Below the pieces are notes generated by a model. The model was not told the DNA's origin. It searched no databases and saw only the letters and a list, made by a program, of their open reading frames with translations. From a virus (Duplodnaviria > Heunggongvirae > Uroviricota > Caudoviricetes): a stretch of DNA of 42,371 nt. Location: positions 1 through 42,371 of IMG/VR virus record IMGVR_UViG_2778261056_000006. The stretch is one strand, 5' to 3'. A program made the position numbers and the translations under genes. Shown in pieces: positions 1,645 to 19,586 of the stretch. Every line of letters begins with the position of its first letter. Position 1 is the stretch's first letter.

Positions 1645-4600
1645 TTATGCCTGAGTACGCAGCGCTTCAAGGCGGCGCAGGTCGAAGTCGTTCAGTTCGT
1701 CGGTGTAGTCAGCAGTGATTGGCGCTGGCCATTCACCTGTGTCGAATCCGGTTGCGATATTGCGCATCGCTTTGCGGTACTCGAGCATACCCAGCTCCAG
1801 TAGTTCAGCGGATGCCTCGATGATGGCGATCCAGTGGTAGTTCTCGTCTTTGTTGACGAAAATCCAGAAGAACTGATCCAGCGCTGCGGTTTCGCAGTAC
1901 ATAGCCGCGCTCAGGTGATAATCACGTTCAATAATTTCCCGGTGTAGCCTGGCGCGCAGGCTTTCCTGCTTAACATTCCACATGCTGATGGTTTTCAGGT
2001 CTGCACCTATACGCACGCCATCCAGGTCGATCTCAAGGTCAGGGCGCACACGAACTTCCAAGCCCGTCTCCTCGTCAAAACCAAAGTAGCTCACCTCAAC
2101 GGCTCGGCTAGGGTGGGTCAGCAGCATGCCGGCGGTCGGGTGTGCCAGAAGCGCTTTTTGAATATTCAGCGCGGTGCTCAGCTGCTGGCGGGTGACCAGC
2201 ACTTTTCCTTCCGGGTTATCGCGCCAGGCATCCAGCAGTTCGTCGGCAAATACGGCATCTGGTTTGACTGCCTTCACGGCCTGGATCATGTCTGCTTTGG
2301 TACCGGACACTTTCAGTGGTGCCGGTTTCTGTGCTTCCTGAGCCACAAGGTCAGGGTTGATGATTGCCAACTGCTCCAGCAGCGCGTCACGGCTGCCGCT
2401 GGTTTTAACCGGCGGCGGCAGGGTGGCGTTGTACTCTTTAATGCATGCCTTCATTGCCGTCGCCGTCTGCTTCTGGTCACCATCAATACGCTGGAAGTCA
2501 GCTGGCAGCGCCATATAGTTCTGTGCCGTTTCTTCCAGGTTAGCGCCAAGCGGAACCTGCGGCGGCAGGGTGGCGTTGTACTCTTCCAGTAACACCTTGA
2601 TGTCGTCGGCAGACAGCAGCGCCGGCAGGCTGGCATTGTGCTCATCGATAAAGGCGCGCAGGGTCGCGGCCGTTGTGAATGCGCCTTCAGGGATCACCGG
2701 TTCAACGCTGAATTCTGCGTCCAGTAGTTCAGGCTGCAACGCCAGCGCATGCACCAAGTTGCCCATGTCCAGCACCGCTGAGCGCTCTTTGACGATGGTT
2801 TTCTCTACGTGGCGCGCATTGAAGTACATCAGCGAAACGCGCGCATCTTTCACCTGGGTTGAGCTGATGCCGTTGGCGGCGTGGTAAACCTCGTTTGGCA
2901 GCCCTTCATAGCGGCCTGGCTCGAAATAAGCGGGATAAACAACAGCCGGTTCGTCAGATTGCGCTTCTGGCTCGGTTTGTGCTGCAACTGGTTCGGTTTG
3001 GCTTACAGAATCGCTATTTTTGGCGACAGAATCCGTATTCTGGTTTACATCGTCCTTCTGGCTGGTATCTGACTCTTCACCAGACTCCAGACTGCTTTCG
3101 CCTGGCTGTACTTCATCACCAGCTTGTTTTTCATCACTGACAGTTTCTTGAACCTGCACATTGCTGGTGGTCTCCGTAGCCTTTTTCGTGCCATGAGTTG
3201 CTGAGTTCTGCAGCAAAGCCGTAACGTCGAATATTCCGTTGCCGACATTTTTAACCAGTTCTTGTTCGACTTTCTGCGGTTGTGCTGCCGCTTCCTCTGC
3301 GCGGCGGCGTGCTCCTTCTTCACGCACGCGTTGCAGGTTCTCTTCGTGAGTGCAGAAGGATTTGCGCGGAGACTCCTTACCTTCAGGTTGGGGAATTTCC
3401 TGTGCTGCGGGTTCAGCCTCATGCAACGGCAATAACTCGACCGCGGAATTGAACGCGGCTGTCATGGTCTGGTTAACAAATTCCAGGTGAGCGACAGGAG
3501 TTAAATGAATATTTTCCGGTGCGATACGTACCAGGTTAAAAATAGCCGTGCGGTTAACACCCAGAACGCCTGGCTGATTGCGCAGGATGTTGCTCCATGA
3601 TTTCCATGGTTCTTCTTTTTTGGTCACGATTTCTTTAGCGCGACGAAGAATGCTGCCCGGGATCTCGAAGTGGTTGAAGTCCATAGGCAGAAGGGCACAC
3701 GCAATCTCTAAATCGAGAGTGTCCAGTGTGTGGTGTGCGTCAGGTCCACGGTCAGTGACGTAACCGCCGTCGGCATTAGTGCCGGAATCAGTACGCTGCA
3801 CACTACTGATGCGATTACCGGCGGCCCATTCGCGAACGAGGATACCGCGGTCGATGTGATCTGTAGCGAACCACAATTTCAAAAACTGGATTAAGGTTGC
3901 GAGTTCAGGGATTTTTCCATCGACAGGGAAGACTTTCTTAACGGCATTCACGACTTTATGAATATCGTGCTCAATGGCTTTTTTGAATGCTTCCACATTC
4001 TCAGCTGCCAGCAGCAGGTTCTGGACGTACGCGTCATCGGTGTCCATCTCAAGGCGGACAATCTCATTTTTCTGCCCTGCGTCGATGTGATAGAGATATT
4101 CACCATCACCGATGAACTGAGCCAGTACGCGCTGGCGGAATGGCAGGGTGGCAACAACGATCAGGTTCGGTTGCTGTGTCTGCTGGGATTGCTCTTCGGT
4201 ATCGACTTCACCATCAACGACGCCACCTTCTGCCCGGCCGTTCTCGTCGGTCTGGATACCGTCCTCAACAGTGAGATCTTGACCCGTTGTAACGTCAGCA
4301 GCGTTGCTGGTTTCAGTTTTGAGCAACTGCAACTTACCACTGCGCCAGTCTTCTACCAGTTGATTGCGGTCACCGGCATCGGTGTTCACCCAGTCAGACA
4401 TGAATGCAGCGATCAATCTTGGTTCGTGCTCTTCGTCTGGTGTGAAAATGTCCTTAACCGCCCGAATCATTTTCCACTCAGCATTCAGGCTGAGTTTGGC
4501 GGTCGCGGGCACATCGTTCCTTGCCACAAGCAGGCTATGGAGATATGTATTGCCTTCATCCAGTGACATTTCGCTGGCAGCCAACTGCTGCTCTTTAGTG

Positions 4601-7505: not shown

Positions 7506-7916
7506 TTATTCCATATCACCCTTAATCCGCCGCCCCATATACTTGGCGTACAGTTCATCGAGTTCTTTCAATCGTAGAGATACGATCCGCAACATGTTCT
7601 GTTGTTCTTCTTCGTTTGGGAGTTGATTATAGAGTTCCAACAGTCTCCGTTCGTCGTGTCTCAAACCGTCCTTAGCATCCACGTCCTGACCTAGAACCCA
7701 CTCAAGACTTACGCCTAGCGCATCGGCAAGTTTTATTGCTGAGCTTTTTCCTATCGCTCCTCTGACAAACCAGTTGTTGACTGATTGTGCGCTCACACCA
7801 CAGATTCTCGCTATATCCGCTTTGGATATGCGCTTCTTCTCGATGATTTCATTTAACCGCCGAACCTGCGGGTTATCTGTTTGGTGTGTGTTTTTTCTCA
7901 TGTACAAGAGTATCAC
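7506..7916 (-). CDS. XRE-family HTH regulator, paralogue of the prophage repressor
   Basis: N-terminal HTH (ISKADIARICGVSAQSVNNWF), C-terminal segment nearly identical to the adjacent repressor (LELYNQLP.EEEQQNM.RI.SLRLKELDELYAKYM.RRI.GD); ORF starts at GTG 7916, first ATG at 7901. Confidence 0.65.
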   Translation of the reverse strand: MILLYMRKNTHQTDNPQVRRLNEIIEKKRISKADIARICGVSAQSVNNWFVRGAIGKSSAIKLADALGVSLEWVLGQDVDAKDGLRHDERRLLELYNQLPNEEEQQNMLRIVSLRLKELDELYAKYMGRRIKGDME

Positions 7917-7920
7917 TTAG

Positions 7921-8304
7921 CTAATCAGCATCGCCCCTGATTCTGCGATTCATGTACTTGGCATATAGTTCATCGAGTTCCTTCAGACGCAGGGAGAAGA
8001 TCCTTATCATATTCTGCTGTTCTTCTTCCGGTAACTGTCTGTAGAGCTCCAGAATACGTTGTTCATCAGGCTTAAGGCCATCCTTCTCTCCAACATCCTC
8101 ACCAAGTAGCCAGGGGACGGATACCCCAGCAGCATCAGCAACCGCTAATGCAGAACTTTTGCTGATTCTTCCTGTTTTGAACCAACTGGAAACAGCTTGC
8201 TTACTGACGCCAGCAACCCTGGCCATCTCTGTTTTAGAGAAACCTTTCCGGTTCAGTTCTGTAAGCCTGGAGATCAGCCCAGTAGTCATTGTGTTTTCGC
8301 TCAT
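7921..8304 (-). CDS. CI-like prophage repressor (short XRE-HTH type, no S24 peptidase domain)
   Basis: HTH (FSKTEMARVAGVSKQAVSSWF) plus C-terminal oligomerisation-like domain; divergent from the Cro-like gene across an operator region; in-frame ORF extends to 8388 but that would bury the operators in coding sequence, so ATG 8304 (or 8289) is the likely start, possibly leaderless. Confidence 0.6.
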   Translation of the reverse strand: MSENTMTTGLISRLTELNRKGFSKTEMARVAGVSKQAVSSWFKTGRISKSSALAVADAAGVSVPWLLGEDVGEKDGLKPDEQRILELYRQLPEEEQQNMIRIFSLRLKELDELYAKYMNRRIRGDAD

Positions 8305-8313
8305 TTCACTAGT

Positions 8314-8330
8314 GTAAATGATTGCTTTAC
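8314..8330. promoter_or_regulatory. operator site OR-a (GTAAATGATTGCTTTAC)
   Basis: 17-bp dyad GTAAA-N5-GCTTTAC, one of three copies in the window, just upstream of the repressor start. Confidence 0.55.
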
Positions 8331-8351
8331 CAGTAGGTAGGCATTCATTGA

Positions 8352-8380
8352 TTGACTCATTGGTAAAATGATGCTTTACT
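8352..8380 (+). promoter_or_regulatory. PR-like rightward promoter overlapped by operator OR-b (GTAAAATGATGCTTTAC at 8363-8379)
   Basis: TTGACT(8352-8357)-17 bp-TTTACT(8375-8380), followed by SD AAGGAGG and ATG 8402; operator overlaps spacer and -10. Confidence 0.6.
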
Positions 8381-8401
8381 TTTTCCATCTAAGGAGGTCC
8401 T

Positions 8402-8626
8402 ATGACTGGTATTGAGAAAGCTATTCAAAAGTTTGGCACAGGTGCGGCACTCGGAAGAGCGCTTGGATTTTCAAAAATGACAATTTCCAACTGGAAGAAA
8501 ACTGGCATTCCGCCCGATCACATTCGCTCTGTTTTTGAGCTTACGGGAGTCACCCCGCATGAGTTGCGGCCTGACTTATATCCCAATCCAACCGATGCCT
8601 TACCAGTGCAAGAAACGAGGGCATAA
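8402..8626 (+). CDS. Cro-like HTH regulator (YdaS-type)
   Basis: 74 aa; HTH (AALGRALGFSKMTISNWKK) and HELRPDLYP motif typical of Rac YdaS-type Cro analogues; strong SD; divergent from repressor. Confidence 0.7.
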   Translation: MTGIEKAIQKFGTGAALGRALGFSKMTISNWKKTGIPPDHIRSVFELTGVTPHELRPDLYPNPTDALPVQETRA

Positions 8627-8628
8627 CC

Positions 8629-9168
8629 ATGCAGTCACTGTCACTTCATCAAAATAGCGGATATCAACCGGCTGCGATGATAAATCGCAATCAACCTGTC
8701 TCGGTAGATAAACATGACCAGATCCGCGATGCCGTTCGTGCGTGGGCGGGTGTAGATGGTCAGGATGTCGTTTCTGCTCTGATCATCGAAGAGTACCAGG
8801 CTCAAGGGGGAGACGAGATCACTTTCCCTGATGACCTCAGCCGACAGCGTCAGAAGCTTTTCCGCTTTCTGGATAACCATTTCAACAGCGAACGGTACCG
8901 CGAAAACGTTCGCCAGCTGACTCCGGCAATCCTCGCTGTCCTGCCGATTGAATACCGCAATCGTCTGCTACCAGAAGACAACGTAATGGCTCGTCTGGCA
9001 AGGCTGGAGAAGGAAACCAGCGAAGCGAAGATTGCTGTCGCAATGGATGCGCCACGTCATCAGAAGCTGAAAGAGTTGAGCGAGGGGATCGTGGAGATGT
9101 ATCGCGTTGACCCTGGGTTAACCGGTCCGTTGATGGAAATAGTGCAGATTATGCTGGGGGCTATATGA
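8629..9168 (+). CDS. YdaT-like regulatory protein (CII position)
   Basis: 179 aa directly after the Cro-like gene (4-nt gap); position and loose motif resemblance to the Rac YdaT family. Confidence 0.5.
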   Translation: MQSLSLHQNSGYQPAAMINRNQPVSVDKHDQIRDAVRAWAGVDGQDVVSALIIEEYQAQGGDEITFPDDLSRQRQKLFRFLDNHFNSERYRENVRQLTPAILAVLPIEYRNRLLPEDNVMARLARLEKETSEAKIAVAMDAPRHQKLKELSEGIVEMYRVDPGLTGPLMEIVQIMLGAI

Positions 9169-12137: not shown

Positions 12138-12587
12138 ATGACAACTAACCACCCGGCGCACGGTCATGTATCACTCGATCGCCTGCACCAGATACGCGAA
12201 ATACTCAGCAACGCAGCAGCACAAAGCGACGGCGGTAATCTCGGCTACGCAATGGCTGATGCTGTGAAGGTGATTGATGGAGTTCTGGAGTCGATGGCCC
12301 GTGAGCAAGTACGCCGTGAGCATGCTACATGGTCACAGGCTACTTTCGGCGATGTCGGTCCAGTTGGTCCGCTGAAGCACCTTTCCAAAGAAGCGCTCGA
12401 GGCGGCAGCTGAACCAAGTGACCTTACCGAATGGGCTGACATGCAATTCCTGTTATGGGATGCGCAACGTCGTGCCGGTATCAGTGATGAGCAGATTACC
12501 CTGGCGATGGTAGAAAAGTTGGCGGTTAACAAACAGCGCGAATGGCCTGAGCCGAAAGATGGTGAGCCGCGTCTGCACATCAAGTAG
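12138..12587 (+). CDS. DUF550 / MazG-like nucleotide pyrophosphohydrolase-type protein
   Basis: 149 aa; C-terminal EWADMQFLLWDAQRRAGISDEQITLAMVEKLAVNKQREWP resembles the DUF550 domain common in enterobacterial prophages. Confidence 0.45.
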   Translation: MTTNHPAHGHVSLDRLHQIREILSNAAAQSDGGNLGYAMADAVKVIDGVLESMAREQVRREHATWSQATFGDVGPVGPLKHLSKEALEAAAEPSDLTEWADMQFLLWDAQRRAGISDEQITLAMVEKLAVNKQREWPEPKDGEPRLHIK

Positions 12588-12640
12588 ACTCTTATGGATA
12601 ATTGAACCCTAATTCATTATGAACATAATAAGGAGTCCTT

Positions 12641-12961
12641 ATGTCTTACATAATGCCTGAAAAAGGCCAAATGAATGAATATGGAATTGAGGCTTTCGGG
12701 ATCCCGCTTACCAGTAGGCATGGAGTTGCGATGGAACTGTCTCAAATGCTACGTTTTTCTTACTATGTAGCTTCAGTTGGGCTTGTAAAATGTATTGAAA
12801 GTGTCTTCTATGATTCAGGCTCTTGCTGCTGTAATTTTGAATTTATTCCCGGGTTTAATGAGTATTCGGAGGAGGCAGAAAAAATTAGACAGTGCGCGCT
12901 ACGTTCGATTGGGCAATTTGAATGGTTCGGTATGATTGAACACGGCGACATCAACGGCTAA
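12641..12961 (+). CDS. hypothetical protein (AT-rich island)
   Basis: 106-aa ORF with SD AAGGAG, in visibly AT-rich DNA, followed by its own intrinsic terminator. Confidence 0.5.
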   Translation: MSYIMPEKGQMNEYGIEAFGIPLTSRHGVAMELSQMLRFSYYVASVGLVKCIESVFYDSGSCCCNFEFIPGFNEYSEEAEKIRQCALRSIGQFEWFGMIEHGDING

Positions 12962-12989
12962 GTGTTTAACTCCAATAGCAAACGAATAA

Positions 12990-13014
12990 AAGCCTCTAAG
13001 TTAGAGGTTTTTTA
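12990..13014 (+). terminator. intrinsic terminator
   Basis: Stem CCTCTA/TAGAGG with 4-nt loop followed by T5. Confidence 0.6.
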
Positions 13015-13216
13015 TGTCTGAAAGGTAGCATTACCAAGTCTATGGTTGCCTAGCTCAGTCAGGCTTGTATTTGGTTGCTTAGCAATCAACTCATGCGACA
13101 TGAGCGGGATCTTTCTAATCATCATTTTCGGTAAATGATTTTGGTTGCTTGGTTGACAAAATCGAGAAAATGCGAAAATATATGGTTTACGAATTCCAAA
13201 AAAAGCGAAACTTGAA

Positions 13217-13867
13217 ATGAGCGACAACCAGTTAGCACCTTGTTGGGAATTTCAGCCTTACCTTGCTGAAAGCAATGTTCGTCAGTTGTTAGCGGAAATT
13301 GCTAATGTACTCGAGCAATTGTACTACCACAAACACACACTGGACAGTAACTGGTCCGAAGGTGTAAGGGCTTATGATTGGGTCAGAAATCATTTGATTC
13401 AAAGTGAAGGGACACTGCCGGGTCTGGAAATGGTTTCGAAGGGACTGGATTATGTGGTTGCGTTAAATAAAGTGCCGCTGCAGTTCTCCAAAGATTGCAT
13501 TAATAACCCGAAGAAGAAGCATCGCCTTCTTCGAAATAGGGTGGAGCATGAGCAACTTTCATTGTTCGGTGAAACTGAAGCCGAGCAAGATATTACATGG
13601 CGGATCATCGCCGAACCATTTTTATCCGATGAAGAAGATGGCGAGCTGGAATCAACATTGCCTCGCTGGGAAGTGGCTTTAGTTGGGTTTAACGCATATG
13701 GTGCCCAGATCAGTATGGTTTCACACCAATCTACTGCTTCAGCGCCGCTTATGTCTCTTGATACCAACACTCTTCCGGATGAAGCTGAGATTGGCAAAGC
13801 CTCTCTTCGCCGCCGTAAAAAAGATCAAGATTTGGATGTGAGCAGTAATGGAACATCAAGTGAATGA
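13217..13867 (+). CDS. unknown protein, candidate effector/toxin partner of the downstream HTH-peptidase
   Basis: 216-aa ORF with no motif I recognise; 3' end overlaps the next gene by 20 nt; preceded by TTGACA -35-like element and 12-bp direct repeats TTTGGTTGCTT. Confidence 0.55.
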   Translation: MSDNQLAPCWEFQPYLAESNVRQLLAEIANVLEQLYYHKHTLDSNWSEGVRAYDWVRNHLIQSEGTLPGLEMVSKGLDYVVALNKVPLQFSKDCINNPKKKHRLLRNRVEHEQLSLFGETEAEQDITWRIIAEPFLSDEEDGELESTLPRWEVALVGFNAYGAQISMVSHQSTASAPLMSLDTNTLPDEAEIGKASLRRRKKDQDLDVSSNGTSSE

Positions 13868-14951
13868 CTTTGCTGAGTATCGTGGGGATAAGCTCAAATT
13901 AGCCAGAATGGCTGTTGGGCTCTCCTGCGAAGAGTTAGCGGAGAAAATTGGTAAAACAAAACAATTCGTTAGCAAATTGGAAAAAGGGTTTAAACCATCA
14001 GAACAGTTGTTAGAATTAATCTCATCTGCGCTGATGATTAAATCTGATTTCCTATTTACTGAACGAAAATATGCTTTAGAAAGCGATGTTTGCCATTTTC
14101 GGAGTAAAAAATCGAGAACCCAAACATTAACCAATAGTGTTCTGGCAAGGGCGGAGATTCTTAACATTATAATCTCTGCCGTTGAGGGAGAAATCGAGTT
14201 TCCTGATGTTTTCATACCTGAGCACCCCGGTGCTGAATTGCTGACTCCAAATGATATTGAACGTGTAGCGGAAGACTGCAGAAGAGCATGGAACTTAGGG
14301 CTGGGACCTATATCCTCAATGGTCAAACTGGCTGAGAGTTTGGGGGTTATTGTTGCTCATGTGACAGGAGTGGATGACCGCGTAGATGCTTTTACTGTTC
14401 ATAACAACAGGCCAGTAATCATCCGAAATAACGTCAAAAAGAGTATATGCAGATTCCGATCAGATTTAGGTCACGAATTGGGGCACTTGGTTATGCACGA
14501 AGGTATAACCACAGGAGATAAAGTGACTGAATCGCAAGCGGATCGTTTTTCAAGCGCGTTGCTAGTTCCTCGATTGTCCTTTATTAAAGAGTTTCCCCGT
14601 ATACGAGGAAGACAGTTCGATTGGAACGCCCTAGTTGAGTTTAAGCTTCGGTGGAAGATTAGTCTTAAAATGTGCATTTACCGAGCAACAACTCTAGGCC
14701 TGCTGACGCAGGAGCAGGCAAGAACAGGTTATATGCATTTGAACTCTAAAGGATATACGAAAGTTGAACCAGGAGATGAATTTATTCGCCCGGAAGAACC
14801 GAGTATGTTAGCTGAGGCGATTGAAATGCTGGATGATGCAACATGGATGAGCATTCTCATGAAAACTGGTTTAAGCCAGGAGTTGGTTAGGGAGTTATTC
14901 TCGGTAAACCGCCCACTGTCAAATCCAAGAAATCTACTTCAACTGGTTTGA
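13848..14951 (+). CDS. fused XRE-family HTH + ImmA/IrrE (COG2856, Peptidase_M78-type) zinc metallopeptidase
   Basis: 367 aa; N-terminal HTH (LKLARMAVGLSCEELAEKIGKTKQFVSKLEKG); HExxH zinc motif HELGHLVMH in the C-terminal domain. Confidence 0.8.
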   Translation: MEHQVNDFAEYRGDKLKLARMAVGLSCEELAEKIGKTKQFVSKLEKGFKPSEQLLELISSALMIKSDFLFTERKYALESDVCHFRSKKSRTQTLTNSVLARAEILNIIISAVEGEIEFPDVFIPEHPGAELLTPNDIERVAEDCRRAWNLGLGPISSMVKLAESLGVIVAHVTGVDDRVDAFTVHNNRPVIIRNNVKKSICRFRSDLGHELGHLVMHEGITTGDKVTESQADRFSSALLVPRLSFIKEFPRIRGRQFDWNALVEFKLRWKISLKMCIYRATTLGLLTQEQARTGYMHLNSKGYTKVEPGDEFIRPEEPSMLAEAIEMLDDATWMSILMKTGLSQELVRELFSVNRPLSNPRNLLQLV

Positions 14952-14967
14952 CTCAAAGCTTGTAATA

Positions 14968-14994
14968 AACCCGCTATATGCGGGTTTTTTCTTT
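14968..14994 (+). terminator. intrinsic terminator
   Basis: CCCGC-tatat-GCGGG followed by T6. Confidence 0.7.
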
Positions 14995-15113
14995 CTGGTA
15001 GCGCGCTGTGGTAACGCTGTGCCTCCAGCGCTCGCTGAGGCGCTGGTGCGTGCTAATTTGCCGGAGCTTTGTCAGCAGAAACAAATAGCGGCGTAATAAA
15101 ACATTGCTAATTC

Positions 15114-15141
15114 AACCCGCTACGGCGGGTTTTCTTTTTTT
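15114..15141 (+). terminator. second intrinsic terminator with the same stem sequence
   Basis: CCCGC-tacg-GCGGG followed by TTTTCTTTTTTT; coordinates approximate. Confidence 0.6.
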
Positions 15142-15203
15142 AATACTGACAGAAAATTAACAATTTGTGCTCTTAAAACGTTGATCATTTCCGTGCATAG
15201 GTA

Positions 15204-15223
15204 TACTGTATAAAAACACAGTA
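15204..15223. promoter_or_regulatory. LexA box (SOS operator) upstream of dinI homologue
   Basis: TACTGTATAAAAACACAGTA, a near-consensus CTGT-N8-ACAG site, 19 nt upstream of the dinI ATG and overlapping the likely -10. Confidence 0.8.
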
Positions 15224-15241
15224 CATGCAATGGAGGCTATT

Positions 15242-15475
15242 ATGAAAGTTGAATTAACCATTGATCGCATGAAAGAACTTCCTAAAGGCGCAGTACCAGC
15301 ACTGGAGAAAGAACTGCTTAAGCGCCTGAATGATCACTATGACAATTGCAGGCTCACAATCCGCCGTGCCGGGTCCGATGGGTTAAGTGTTTTTGGTGGT
15401 GACAAGGACGATAAAAAGAAAATTGAATCAATCCTCCAGGATACCCGGGAAAGCGCTGACGACTGGTTTTATTAG
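15242..15475 (+). CDS. dinI: DinI-family protein
   Basis: 77 aa from ATG 15242 (SD GGAGG 5 nt upstream); aligns along its length with E. coli DinI (…LSV.G..K.DK..I..ILQ.T.ESADDWF). Confidence 0.85.
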   Translation: MKVELTIDRMKELPKGAVPALEKELLKRLNDHYDNCRLTIRRAGSDGLSVFGGDKDDKKKIESILQDTRESADDWFY

Positions 15476-15478
15476 AAT

Positions 15479-15505
15479 TGCGCTTAAGGCTGGCGCGCAT
15501 TTTTC
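15479..15505 (+). terminator. possible weak terminator after dinI
   Basis: TGCGC...GCGCA stem with long loop followed by T5; weak. Confidence 0.3.
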
Positions 15506-15592
15506 AGAATACCGCAATTTGCGTAACCCTCTGATGCTGCTGCCGACAATCTTTAATCGCGTCTGTTAGTCGCTCGAAGGGAGAACATAAAT

Positions 15593-15841
15593 GTGAGTGA
15601 TTCAGCTTTGCAAACGTCAGAAGACAACTGGTATGACATTGTAAGAAGGTCTGACGGCTGCGTGGTGTTTAGCTTTCCTTCATCGGGCAGGCATCTAATT
15701 TATCGCGTCAATGGCATGGTTTCTATGCGGCCTTTGCTGGATGATGAAGAGGTCTTTACTCCTAATGGTTTTATGCAATTTATCCGCCGTCTCGGCTACC
15801 GGGTAACACCACCTTCTGATAATATGAAATCAACGGTCTGA
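15593..15841 (+). CDS. hypothetical protein downstream of dinI
   Basis: 82-aa ORF with GTG start and SD GAAGGGAG; no recognisable motif. Confidence 0.45.
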   Translation: MSDSALQTSEDNWYDIVRRSDGCVVFSFPSSGRHLIYRVNGMVSMRPLLDDEEVFTPNGFMQFIRRLGYRVTPPSDNMKSTV

Positions 15842-15875
15842 ACAACCGTAACCTACTGCGCCACGGAGAGAAACC

Positions 15876-16475
15876 ATGGCGCACGAACTACAACTCATTA
15901 AGCAGTCCTCAGGAATTCTGATCCCCGCTACGCCGGAGACCAGCGATATTCTGCAATCAAAAATCAAACTTGGTGCCGTATTGGTAGCCGAATTTCGTCA
16001 GGTGAGGAATCCAGCATTCCATCGCCGTTTCTTTGCGCTCCTGAATCTCGGGTTTGAATACTGGGAACCCACCGGTGGGGCGATTTCTTCCAATGAACGT
16101 AAATTGGTGACCGGGTACGCTAAATTCCTCGCGGCATTTGGTGGAAACGAAGGCGCACTGCTGGATGCTGCCGAGCAGTATCTGGACCGTATCGCCGATA
16201 AGCGCGCCGGTAGTATCAGCATCTGCAAATCCTATGACGCATATCGTGCATGGGTGATCATCGAGTCTGGCCACTACGACGCCATACAGCTTCCCGACGG
16301 CACCCTTCGCAAACACCCCCGCAGCATTGCCTTTGCCAACATGGACGAAACCGAGTTCCAGCAGCTGTACAAAGCCGCGCTCGATGTTCTGTGGCGCTGG
16401 GTATTGTCCCGGGCATTCAAGGACCAGCGTGAAGCGGAAAACGCCGCATCGCAGCTCATGAGCTTTGCGGGGTGA
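15876..16475 (+). CDS. hypothetical nin-region phage protein (possibly DUF1367-type)
   Basis: 199-aa ORF with SD; family suggestion from recall only. Confidence 0.5.
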   Translation: MAHELQLIKQSSGILIPATPETSDILQSKIKLGAVLVAEFRQVRNPAFHRRFFALLNLGFEYWEPTGGAISSNERKLVTGYAKFLAAFGGNEGALLDAAEQYLDRIADKRAGSISICKSYDAYRAWVIIESGHYDAIQLPDGTLRKHPRSIAFANMDETEFQQLYKAALDVLWRWVLSRAFKDQREAENAASQLMSFAG

Positions 16476-16681
16476 TGGCGATGAAATATTCCTGGTTCCA
16501 CCATCACGAATGCACAACCGATCAGGCCGACGAGCTGGTGGCCAGTTACCGTCGTCGTGGCGCCACGGTAGAACGTAGCCTGAATCGCGACAACATCACC
16601 TGGACTATCAGCGCAAAATTGCCTGAATGCGAGCATCCGGCGCGTACACCAAGAACCTTTCGACAAAAGGTCTGGGGGTGA
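16472..16681 (+). CDS. hypothetical small protein
   Basis: 69-aa ORF whose start overlaps the previous stop (ATGA). Confidence 0.4.
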   Translation: MMAMKYSWFHHHECTTDQADELVASYRRRGATVERSLNRDNITWTISAKLPECEHPARTPRTFRQKVWG

Positions 16682-18473: not shown

Positions 18474-18674
18474 ATGGGCGCTGCAGAATTTTACGAAAAA
18501 GTAGGTATTAAATCAGAGGAACTCCATAAAGGTGAATCTGTACAACACTATGCTATGCGCGTTCTTGCTCAGCAAGACGACCAGGCTATACGTAGTGGTG
18601 TTCTATACTCCTACAGCACTGTAAGTTCAGTTGAAGCTGTAGAGCAACAATCTCATCAACTGTACTCATATTGA
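18474..18674 (+). CDS. hypothetical small protein (Q-lysis moron)
   Basis: 66-aa ORF with SD GAGGG, in AT-rich DNA. Confidence 0.45.
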   Translation: MGAAEFYEKVGIKSEELHKGESVQHYAMRVLAQQDDQAIRSGVLYSYSTVSSVEAVEQQSHQLYSY

Positions 18675-18686
18675 TAAAAGAAGAAC

Positions 18687-19586
18687 ATGCCAAATTGGAT
18701 AGACGTGTTGGGCGAGATGGGTACTATTGCTCAACGTACACCAGCGGATGAGGTTCGCCACAAGTACTTACGAGAGTTGTCGAAGCATACAGGCCGAAAC
18801 GTAATTTCATATTACTCAGGCTTCCTCCAGAAGGGGGGGCCTGGGTTGCAGCATTTAATACAAATGTCAGATGACGATAAAAATGGTCTTATGTCAGCCA
18901 TTAACGGCTTAGACACGTCATTAGGGCTGGATATCTTGCTTCATACCCCAGGGGGAGATATTGCAGCATTGGAATCTATTGGTCATTATCTTCGTTCAAA
19001 ATTTGGGACCAATATCCGGGCAATTGTTCCTATGATCTCAATGAGTTGTGGGACCATGTTGGCTTGCTGTGCCGAACAGATTGTATTGGGCAAACAGTCA
19101 AATTTGGGGCCAATTGATCCGCAGCTTGGTGGTTTATCATCTCATGCGATCATAGAAGAGTATGAGCGAGCTAAGAAAGAGATTTCTGAAAATGCTGCAG
19201 CGATCCAATGGTGGCAATTTACTCTTCAAAAGCTAAACCCGACTCTCATTGGTGAATGTGAAAAGGCTATTGTTTGGGCTAATGAAATAGTACAAAAATG
19301 GCTGTGTACTGGTATGTTTGCAGGTCATGCTAACGCTCAAGATAAGGCTAAGCGAATTTGTGATGAGCTAAACAATCATCATACAACCTATGCGCATGCT
19401 AGACATATTCATCTGGATAAAGCGCAAAGCATTGGTTTGAACATTATGGAGCTGGAGAGCGACCAAACTCTGCAGGATCTTGTGCTGACTATACATCATT
19501 GCTACATGCATTCATTTGGTACGAGTCCTGCTGCGAAAATTATTGAAAATCATAATGGCAGCACGATGATGTGGAATATTCGCTAA
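18687..19586 (+). CDS. SDH-family ClpP/crotonase-fold serine protease
   Basis: 299 aa; LHTPGGD motif and overall pattern typical of S49/SDH ClpP-fold peptidases; sits between Q and the holin. Confidence 0.6.
   Translation: MPNWIDVLGEMGTIAQRTPADEVRHKYLRELSKHTGRNVISYYSGFLQKGGPGLQHLIQMSDDDKNGLMSAINGLDTSLGLDILLHTPGGDIAALESIGHYLRSKFGTNIRAIVPMISMSCGTMLACCAEQIVLGKQSNLGPIDPQLGGLSSHAIIEEYERAKKEISENAAAIQWWQFTLQKLNPTLIGECEKAIVWANEIVQKWLCTGMFAGHANAQDKAKRICDELNNHHTTYAHARHIHLDKAQSIGLNIMELESDQTLQDLVLTIHHCYMHSFGTSPAAKIIENHNGSTMMWNIR

Follow-up and report, generated by a model that had tools for sequence, protein, structure and literature searches.

A gene pair in an Escherichia coli prophage assigned by homology to the Vmi480/Vmi470 subtype of RosmerTA

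The window analysed here is a stretch of 42,371 nucleotides (nt), namely the whole of the IMG/VR virus record IMGVR_UViG_2778261056_000006, and it contains two overlapping genes, rmrT and rmrA, for proteins of 216 and 367 amino acids (aa) (Table 1). Judged by homology, the pair is very probably a prophage-borne RosmerTA cassette of the Vmi480/Vmi470 subtype, a reading that takes in a common operon, translational coupling, autorepression, the roles of toxin and antidote, and the ClpX/ClpP steps. RosmerTA systems were defined by a Zn-peptidase antitoxin with a toxin whose function was not known, and a ΔrmrA mutant was unobtainable (Millman et al. 2022, 10.1101/2022.05.11.491447). What speaks for class membership and toxin-antitoxin (TA) function of the window pair is strong homology to validated systems; we infer the trigger, the peptidase's role, the defence phenotype and the toxin target.

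Both open reading frames (ORFs) that an earlier note on the window had described are present on the plus strand, with their 20-nt overlap. The note had read the downstream gene as an XRE helix-turn-helix (HTH) fused to an M78 peptidase, and Pfam bears this out, placing HTH_3 at residues 16-62 (E-value, E, 3e-9) and Peptidase_M78 at residues 176-280 (E 1.3e-10) of the 367-aa protein, in which the HELGHLVMH motif is intact. The HTH part also matches the HTH domains of 434 repressor and SinR among PDB sequences. The module had further been taken for a TA or defence-type pair with RosmerTA as the nearest analogy, and a PADLOC search had been suggested as a check. That search (PADLOC-DB 2.0.0) calls the pair RosmerTA: the 216-aa protein matches the RmrT model PDLC03929 (E 2.4e-26, residues 7-207 aligned to positions 5-193 of the 198 in the model), and the 367-aa protein matches the RmrA model PDLC03943 (E 1.6e-106) together with 13 other RmrA models. 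RosmerTA was the right comparison, and the pair appears to be an actual member of the class. In agreement with the organisation of such operons, there are two adjacent, co-directional and overlapping genes behind a single upstream promoter region, an N-terminal XRE HTH, an M78 domain with intact HExxH, and a partner from a catalogued RmrT family.

The earlier note had gone further in regarding the system as undescribed and the 216-aa partner as a new effector family. This is understandable for a protein that lacks matches in Pfam, NCBIfam and PDB and is 'hypothetical' in all annotations, but it is hardly credible now that the protein can be placed, along its full length, in a PADLOC family that already existed, as did the PHROGs family phrog_5786 ('unknown', E 7e-82). 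Moreover, the family member Vmi480 (VMD_06480) was validated as a toxin in 2015 (PMC4671572). The PADLOC model, the matches of the relatives to PDLC03929 and the homology to Vmi480 together refute the claim of novelty. The 216-aa protein does not match any known structural or housekeeping phage family.

Experimental precedent for the subtype comes from Vibrio mimicus MGIVmi1, where vmi480 (198 aa) kills E. coli, the downstream vmi470 (362 aa, HTH and Zn-peptidase) rescues this toxicity, and vmi470 alone cannot be deleted (Luo et al. 2015, PMC4671572). The toxin is in wide use as a counter-selection marker. Its termini, MTKKPEFY… and …QKKVSDE, can be taken from the published cloning primers, and one of the proteins in our searches, P0190, has exactly these termini and the length of Vmi480; its 90%-identity cluster includes '671076.VMD_06480'. 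In a BLASTP comparison, the window toxin aligns with P0190 across the folded part (residues 12-179, 26% identity, E 2e-16), and a profile search finds the Vibrio homologue P0080 at E 1.7e-13. When 1.84 billion representative proteins were searched exhaustively with a profile, 88 relatives of the toxin came up at E ≤ 0.001, nearly all of them about 200 aa long. The relatives that could be named come from Vibrio, Aeromonas, Pseudomonas and related genera and are all annotated as 'hypothetical', and every distant relative tested matches PDLC03929.

The antidotes tell a similar story. In Vibrio fluvialis, the locus reproduces the published layout, with a 5-nt gap and a 361-aa antidote, and at the start of each gene it aligns with the published primer, apart from 4-5 mismatches (5 at the vmi470 start codon). 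RmrA of the window is 47% identical to this Vmi470 homologue (E 3e-122). For all four antidotes examined that partner PDLC03929-type toxins, PDLC03943 is the best-scoring model, with a lead of more than 100 bits, and the antidote of the verified E. coli OLC-716 system scores best on PDLC03949; judged by these scores, the antidote subfamily tracks the toxin subfamily. The Vibrio mimicus pair and the window pair are thus alike in that the toxin gene comes first, that the antidote combines HTH and Zn-peptidase, that both reside on mobile elements, that protein lengths are similar (198/362 aa versus 216/367 aa), and that the toxins belong to the same PADLOC RmrT model. They differ in their diverged sequences, in the 5-nt gap of Vibrio versus the overlap found here, and in the carrier, which is a mobilisable genomic island in one case and a lambdoid prophage in the other; activity has been shown for the Vibrio pair.

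Several points weigh against the assignment. The evidence for the window pair itself is sequence-based, with experiments existing for homologues only, and the identity of the toxin to Vmi480 is as low as 26%. A tblastn search with the toxin gave no match in 50,697 sequenced phage records, so the module has no counterpart there, and the promoter, with a weak -10 box, was not called by a consensus scan. A further uncertainty concerns the prophage pair of E. coli E101, which is 33%/42% identical to Vmi480/470 and renders clpP essential (10.1101/2020.05.25.114553). Its accessions, WP_001179380.1 and WP_000481765.1, were not found by a sensitive DNA search of E. coli genomes; the E101 toxin, a possible member of the clade of the window toxin, was thus not located. 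Candidates for the E101 toxin with Thr46 and 33-37% identity to Vmi480 had to be discarded, as they proved to be Pseudomonas or Aeromonas proteins.

The antidote domains are not restricted to RosmerTA. The same XRE HTH and M78/COG2856 domains occur in ImmR/ImmA, IrrE/DdrO and CapH/CapP, and these systems offer a hint as to how an HTH could be inactivated by an M78 domain that senses a signal. By analogy, the fused HTH-protease of the window might be a switch that controls prophage induction or a neighbouring gene, with the 216-aa protein as a regulatory partner. RmrA indeed has weaker matches to the PADLOC models capP (E 2e-14) and capH (E 3e-5), and its PHROGs family, phrog_2439, is labelled 'transcriptional regulator'. 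However, the RmrA models outscore capP by about 300 bits, Vmi480, the homologue of the upstream protein, kills when it is expressed by itself, and the prophage has a separate immunity region with repressor, cro-like and YdaT genes at about 7894-9168 of the window (15305-16579 of locus L001). In ImmR/ImmA, IrrE/DdrO and CapH/CapP, separate proteins control another operon, for excision of an integrative and conjugative element (ICE), for DNA repair or for the CBASS defence system. In RmrA, the domains are fused, the partner is a toxin, and there is no co-travelling regulated neighbour. In particular, the organisation of ImmR/ImmA is not found, as the domains are fused, the site is in the nin region, the immunity region lies elsewhere and the pair moves between unrelated sites. 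Since the two genes are transferred together among sites and prophages that are unrelated, the pair would regulate no fixed neighbour, and a switch of this kind is very improbable.

Within RosmerTA, comparison with other characterised systems shows how far the likeness extends. RmrA of the window is 29% identical over 300 residues to OLC-716 RmrA (E 3e-35), with the HELGH motifs aligned, and both pairs are two-gene operons with an XRE HTH and M78 antidote, called RmrT plus RmrA by PADLOC. In contrast, the OLC-716 toxin (PDLC03935) has no similarity to the window toxin (E 0.93), and the antidotes belong to different subfamilies (PDLC03949 versus PDLC03943). Of these two systems, phage defence has been shown for OLC-716 only. 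The RmrT of the Gordonia phage Kita is a membrane depolariser (PMC10440598), which implies that targets differ among the Rosmer toxin families. A third system, RipAB (Spr1630/Spr1629) of Streptococcus pneumoniae, is a Rosmer TA whose antidote is functional only with intact ClpX, and suppressors of its toxin RipA map to the hydrophobic pocket of DnaN and abolish a two-hybrid interaction (10.1101/2025.09.02.673660). RipAB resembles the window pair in antidote architecture and in having the toxin in the same operon, and RmrA matches the NCBIfam 'spr1629 family repressor/antitoxin', albeit below threshold (E 7e-46, 157 bits versus a cut-off of 335). Unlike the window pair, RipAB is chromosomal, resides in a Gram-positive host, and has competence induction as its known read-out.

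The upstream region was compared in an alignment of DNA from six diverged loci, and in 50 viral contigs from IMG/VR that were found with a 13-sequence family alignment. Upstream of about position 13150 of the window, the six loci are unrelated; strong conservation sets in sharply at 13151 and runs from GGTTGACAAAA to the ATG. The TTGACA element, which the earlier note had likened to a -35 box, is perfect and invariant in the six loci, and TTGAC precedes the toxin gene in all 50 viral contigs. As the consensus scan did not call a promoter, we infer the -10 box, AAATAT. The promoter is straddled by two copies of a 28-nt imperfect direct repeat that are 79% identical to each other. Among 17 distinct upstream sequences, conservation is confined to the blocks GGTTnAC and GCGAAA, with spacers that vary, and both copies are kept in 44 of the 50 viral loci. 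These tandem motifs are candidate operators, at which the HTH of RmrA would bind and repress its own operon.

The earlier note had placed the operators elsewhere, at a pair of 12-bp direct repeats, TTTGGTTGCTT. Two exact copies do exist, at 13070 and 13140, but they measure 11 nt, and the repeat is statistically unremarkable, with two or more matches at up to one mismatch in 32% of shuffled sequences. Both copies lie upstream of the point where conservation starts and are absent from all relatives. An operator function of TTTGGTTGCTT was rejected, as the repeat is outside the conserved unit and without counterpart in the relatives.

The two genes travel together. In all 50 viral contigs, rmrA lies directly downstream of the toxin gene on the same strand, with an overlap of 20 nt in 48 and of 17 nt in 2, and HExxH is intact in all 49 complete RmrA copies. 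In Serratia, Xenorhabdus, Yersinia, Vibrio, Pseudomonas and one further prophage, a gene with HTH_3 and Peptidase_M78 always follows the toxin gene; the two overlap by 14 nt in both Xenorhabdus and Yersinia, and are 5 nt apart in Vibrio. The sites occupied in these hosts vary and include the nin region, the interval between Q and holin, and positions beside genes for a NACHT protein, a tail-fibre invertase and an ATPase of AAA_15/SMC type. Altogether, 51 loci present 11 types of left and 13 types of right flanking DNA.

In E. coli, the boundaries of the mobile unit can be read directly. A variant of about 80% identity is found in about 280 complete genomes, and its homology to the window covers exactly positions 13150-14951, with the -35 box at one end and the stop codon of rmrA at the other. 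As homology ends at this codon, the rmrA terminator lies outside the mobile unit. One copy of this variant resides in a Rac-like prophage, beside hokD. A third, strongly diverged allele (positions 1962-3720 of locus L015, E. coli O157:H7 G5295), with a toxin of 41% identity (WP_001138877.1) and the antidote WP_000418464.1, came up in a sensitive DNA search; it occurs in O157:H7 and related prophages, again beside hokD, so that the E. coli pan-genome holds at least three cassette alleles. One or another of these turns up in roughly 5% of complete E. coli genomes, and the toxin is also present on two E. coli plasmids.

The region is matched by a prophage at 100% identity in four complete E. coli genomes and at 99.4% in a fifth, among 5,426 searched; in NZ_CP104681, this prophage adjoins kch. 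Its early genes are lambdoid (RecET, repressor/cro/YdaT, the O/P replication genes, NinG and Q), and its tail genes are of myovirus type. Sister prophages with identical neighbour proteins (for example WP_016066204/5 and DinI WP_089640348.1) carry different cargo at the same site, such as genes for YdcA and a hypothetical protein of 330 aa, the remnant of an exoribonuclease together with unknown genes, or tRNA-Ile. The varied flanks and the other cargo of the sister prophages indicate that the pair is not part of the core of this phage lineage; it was membership in that core that the earlier note would have counted against itself. As judged from sequence context, the pair is exchangeable cargo, a so-called moron, in the nin region of a lambdoid prophage of E. 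coli.

Some of the neighbours of the cassette elsewhere are of defence or TA type. They include a 624-aa NACHT/NB-ARC protein (L007, 6049-7923), an SMC_N/AAA_15 ATPase in Vibrio (L010, 5555-6600), ParE/Phd in Xenorhabdus (L006, 7449-8049) and, in two E. coli prophage types, hokD (L002, 5747-5902; L015, 3900-4055). The neighbours in other hosts are compatible with defence and addiction hotspots.

From these data and from the analogous systems, a sequence of events may be proposed. The bicistronic operon would be transcribed from its own promoter, with the invariant -35 and the weak -10 box, and the overlap, in a layout kept in all 50 viral loci, would couple translation, so that antidote is co-produced with toxin. 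Binding of the RmrA HTH to the tandem motifs would repress the operon. RmrT would be lethal and RmrA would neutralise it, as has been established for Vmi480/Vmi470 and other RosmerTA pairs. Restraint of the toxin would, in addition, require host ClpX/ClpP, as shown for the Vmi480-like E101 pair and for RipAB; the ClpX dependence of the latter parallels the ClpP dependence of the former. Likewise, a correlation exists in Pectobacteriaceae, where rmrA is essential in transposon sequencing (Tn-seq), and clpX is essential in RosmerTA-positive strains alone (10.64898/2025.12.09.693261). RmrT would thus be kept inactive by RmrA, probably with the help of ClpXP. Loss of this control, plausibly at phage infection, would free the toxin and arrest growth.

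It appears somewhat more probable than otherwise that such an arrest serves as an abortive-infection-type defence, as shown for two other RosmerTA systems. The toxins of the RosmerTA systems with known anti-phage activity are unrelated to the one in the window (OLC-716, E 0.93; the Kita depolariser), so that neither defence nor target can be transferred with confidence. Alternatively, the cassette may be a pure addiction or stabilisation module that plays no part against phages and only maintains the prophage, by post-segregational killing. The description of Vmi480/470 was simply that of a TA system on a mobilisable genomic island (PMC4671572), the essentiality of rmrA in Tn-seq is classic addiction behaviour, the cassette lies beside the addiction-type gene hokD in other prophages, and the literature searched contained no phage-defence test of the PDLC03929 subtype. 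On the other hand, two RosmerTA systems with the same antidote architecture do defend against phages, and the cassette sits in moron and defence hotspots of prophages, where it adjoins NACHT and AAA_15/SMC-type ATPase genes. Moreover, addiction in the style of plasmids would bring little gain to an integrated prophage, and the two roles can coexist. Addiction as the sole function is therefore unlikely, although it retains appreciable weight.

Sequence searches give no lead to the fold of the toxin. None of 80 family members has a Pfam match, a profile search against PDB gave nothing at E up to 10, and there was neither a meaningful NCBIfam match nor a significant fold match. AlphaFold, with an 80-sequence alignment, nevertheless gave a confident model (predicted local distance difference test score, pLDDT, 83; predicted template modelling score, pTM, 0.73), with two long N-terminal helices, a sheet of six to seven strands and a C-terminal tail that is disordered. 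Conservation is seen at D43, W46, G49, R51, Y53, V86, P87, F90, P98, E110, Q113, L116, W128, R129, E133 and G157. One might think of a nuclease of the restriction-endonuclease-like PD-(D/E)xK fold that degrades DNA and does not bind the clamp. However, the β2 and β3 strands lack conserved acidic or lysine residues in the 80 sequences, and D78 and K92 vary. With no catalytic motif conserved, such a nuclease was rejected as the main hypothesis and appears improbable.

The best-conserved segment of the toxin is E110-x-x-Q113-L-S-L-F117, in which Q113 and E110 are conserved in 90% of the 80 sequences. The pentapeptide QLSLF matches exactly the consensus of β-clamp-binding motifs, given as QL[S/D]LF or, in a broader form, QxxLF, and it has sub-micromolar affinity for the E. 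coli clamp (PMC12309361). The motif class also includes a hexapeptide form, QLxLxL, to which the QISLEL of Vmi480 at this site fits. A strict motif is present at the aligned site in 43 of the 80 members and a loose one in 63, and a strict motif occurs anywhere in only 8% of composition-matched shuffles. In the model, QLSLF lies at the end of a short helix and is followed by a loop of low pLDDT. The DnaN hydrophobic pocket, the target of RipA, is where such a motif would bind.

We therefore propose, tentatively and as something short of probable, that Vmi480-type RmrT toxins, including the one in the window, may be β-sliding-clamp poisons that dock in the DnaN pocket through a QLSLF-type motif and are checked by RmrA and ClpXP. 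The freed toxin might then arrest replication by occupying the clamp pocket via QLSLF, a mode of action that we regard as possible but somewhat less likely than not to apply. Against the clamp as target stand the 37 of 80 members in which the strict motif is not found, and the fact that the toxin lacks an NCBIfam or Pfam model match and has no established homology to RipA. The QLSLF segment could also be a packing element or a contact to RmrA. No statement that Vmi480-type toxins poison the clamp was found in the literature searched. A functional parallel may exist in SocAB, a type VI TA of Caulobacter crescentus with a clamp-blocking toxin (as summarised in 10.1101/2025.09.02.673660). The likeness to SocAB is proposed as a functional analogy only (clamp pocket, ClpXP restraint), and no sequence relationship is expected. 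According to Aakre et al. 2013, the toxin reportedly blocks replication at the β-clamp pocket and is restrained by ClpXP, which makes clpXP essential, and SocA is said to be a proteolytic adaptor without HTH or M78 domain, unlike RmrA.

If the clamp proposal were true, Rosmer toxins unrelated in sequence (RipA and the Vmi480 family) and SocB would converge on one target, and a single mechanism would explain the essentiality of clpX/clpP in cassette-carrying strains of several species. The cassette would then be a widespread prophage-borne replication-arrest module, and about 5% of E. coli strains would carry an abortive-infection switch of this kind. The pair adds little as a catalogue entry, since an automatic run of PADLOC or DefenseFinder would call it RosmerTA. 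The RosmerTA class and the Vmi480 toxin family were already known, and what is new is QLSLF as the best-conserved segment of the toxin. The analysis supplies a minimal cassette, a specific candidate operator and a candidate motif that can be changed by point mutation, and together these make the questions of target, defence, peptidase and ClpXP testable in E. coli K-12. The interest is modest and would rise only if the clamp-binding hypothesis proved correct.

Two further observations concern the toxin. The suppressor T46S of the E101 toxin may map to residue 47 of the window toxin (13355-13357), which follows a conserved Trp/Tyr in the block D-x-x-W-(T/S)-x-G. Representatives with Thr46 read DDTNWTRG there, and Ser naturally takes the place of this Thr in the window toxin (NWSEG); the correspondence with the E101 residue is a guess. 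The tail, residues 172-216 (13730-13864), is predicted to be disordered, and in about half of the family it contains a short motif, [V/I][E/D][L/I]xxP, after which come first basic and then acidic residues (AEIGKASLRRRKKDQDLD in the window toxin). This could be an RmrA contact, a cleavage site or a degradation signal, although support is weak because the regular expression is loose.

Table 1. Positions, in the window, of the putative RosmerTA cassette, its elements and nearby hairpins
Feature	Position	Strand	Remarks
Mobile RosmerTA cassette: promoter/operator, rmrT and rmrA	13150-14951	+	homology limits of the variant of about 80% identity
Tandem motif copy 1 (GGTTGAC…GCGAAA)	13150-13177	+	over the -35 box; candidate RmrA operator
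-35 box TTGACA	13153-13158	+	invariant in 6 diverged loci
Candidate weak -10 box AAATAT	13176-13181	+	17-nt spacer; read from the sequence
Tandem motif copy 2 (GGTTTAC…GCGAAA)	13183-13210	+	just 3' of the -10 box; candidate RmrA operator
rmrT, putative 216-aa toxin of the Vmi480 family	13217-13867	+	PADLOC RmrT PDLC03929
Q113-L-S-L-F117 codons of the toxin	13553-13567	+	consensus β-clamp-binding-type motif
rmrT/rmrA overlap, 20 nt	13848-13867	+	probable translational coupling
rmrA, putative 367-aa antidote/regulator	13848-14951	+	XRE HTH, M78 Zn-peptidase and C-terminal region
HExxH zinc-binding motif of RmrA (H209-E-L-G-H213)	14472-14486	+	read from the sequence
Intrinsic terminator 3' of rmrA	14967-14997	+	z -3.3; local context, outside the mobile unit
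Terminator hairpin	14967-14987		called by terminator scan
Terminator hairpin	15114-15131		called by terminator scan
Weaker hairpin	12988-13012		

The cassette lies in an AT-rich island, as the earlier note had judged by eye: the guanine plus cytosine (GC) content is 0.40-0.47 from about 12600 to 15800, compared with 0.51-0.65 in both flanks. Replication, ead and DUF550 genes are found on one side, and dinI, DUF1367 and ninG on the other. More precisely, the island is bounded by the DUF550 gene and by a methyltransferase remnant, which is followed by dinI. Of the three terminators that the earlier note had placed at about 12990, 14968 and 15114, all fold, and do so better than shuffled sequences (z -3.1 to -3.6), but the hairpin at 12988-13012 is the weaker one. 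An Rfam search of the island for structured RNA gave no match above threshold, and its two sub-threshold matches are terminator hairpins. In a megablast search of sequenced phage records, the island had no matches other than to phage mEp237, in the methyltransferase remnant and the terminator.

This remnant, at 14998-15096, is the 3' part of a DNA methyltransferase gene (a RefSeq pseudogene) and is located between two similar terminators; positions 15030-15150 are 92.6% identical to mEp237. It is also kept in the sister prophages with other cargo, and its persistence beside varying cargo points to an old deletion scar at a cargo hotspot. Upstream of the cassette, the island contains an ORF for a Cys-rich protein of 106 aa at 12641-12961 (plus strand), which is preceded by promoter-like sites (12574-12629) and followed by the 12988-13012 hairpin. 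It matches phrog_29216, of unknown function (E 1e-75); Pfam, PADLOC and NCBIfam gave no match, and tblastn none in the 50,697 phage records. Its association with the TA pair is limited to the five near-identical E. coli prophages, which makes it look like a separate moron.

A second AT-rich island (GC 0.35-0.44) is located at 18474-19586 (plus strand), between the genes for the Q antiterminator and the holin. PADLOC has no match to either of its two proteins, which are a product of 66 aa and a ClpP-like serine proteinase of SDH type with 299 aa (PF01972, E 2e-21). This island is another moron, in the classic position for cargo expressed from the late promoter.

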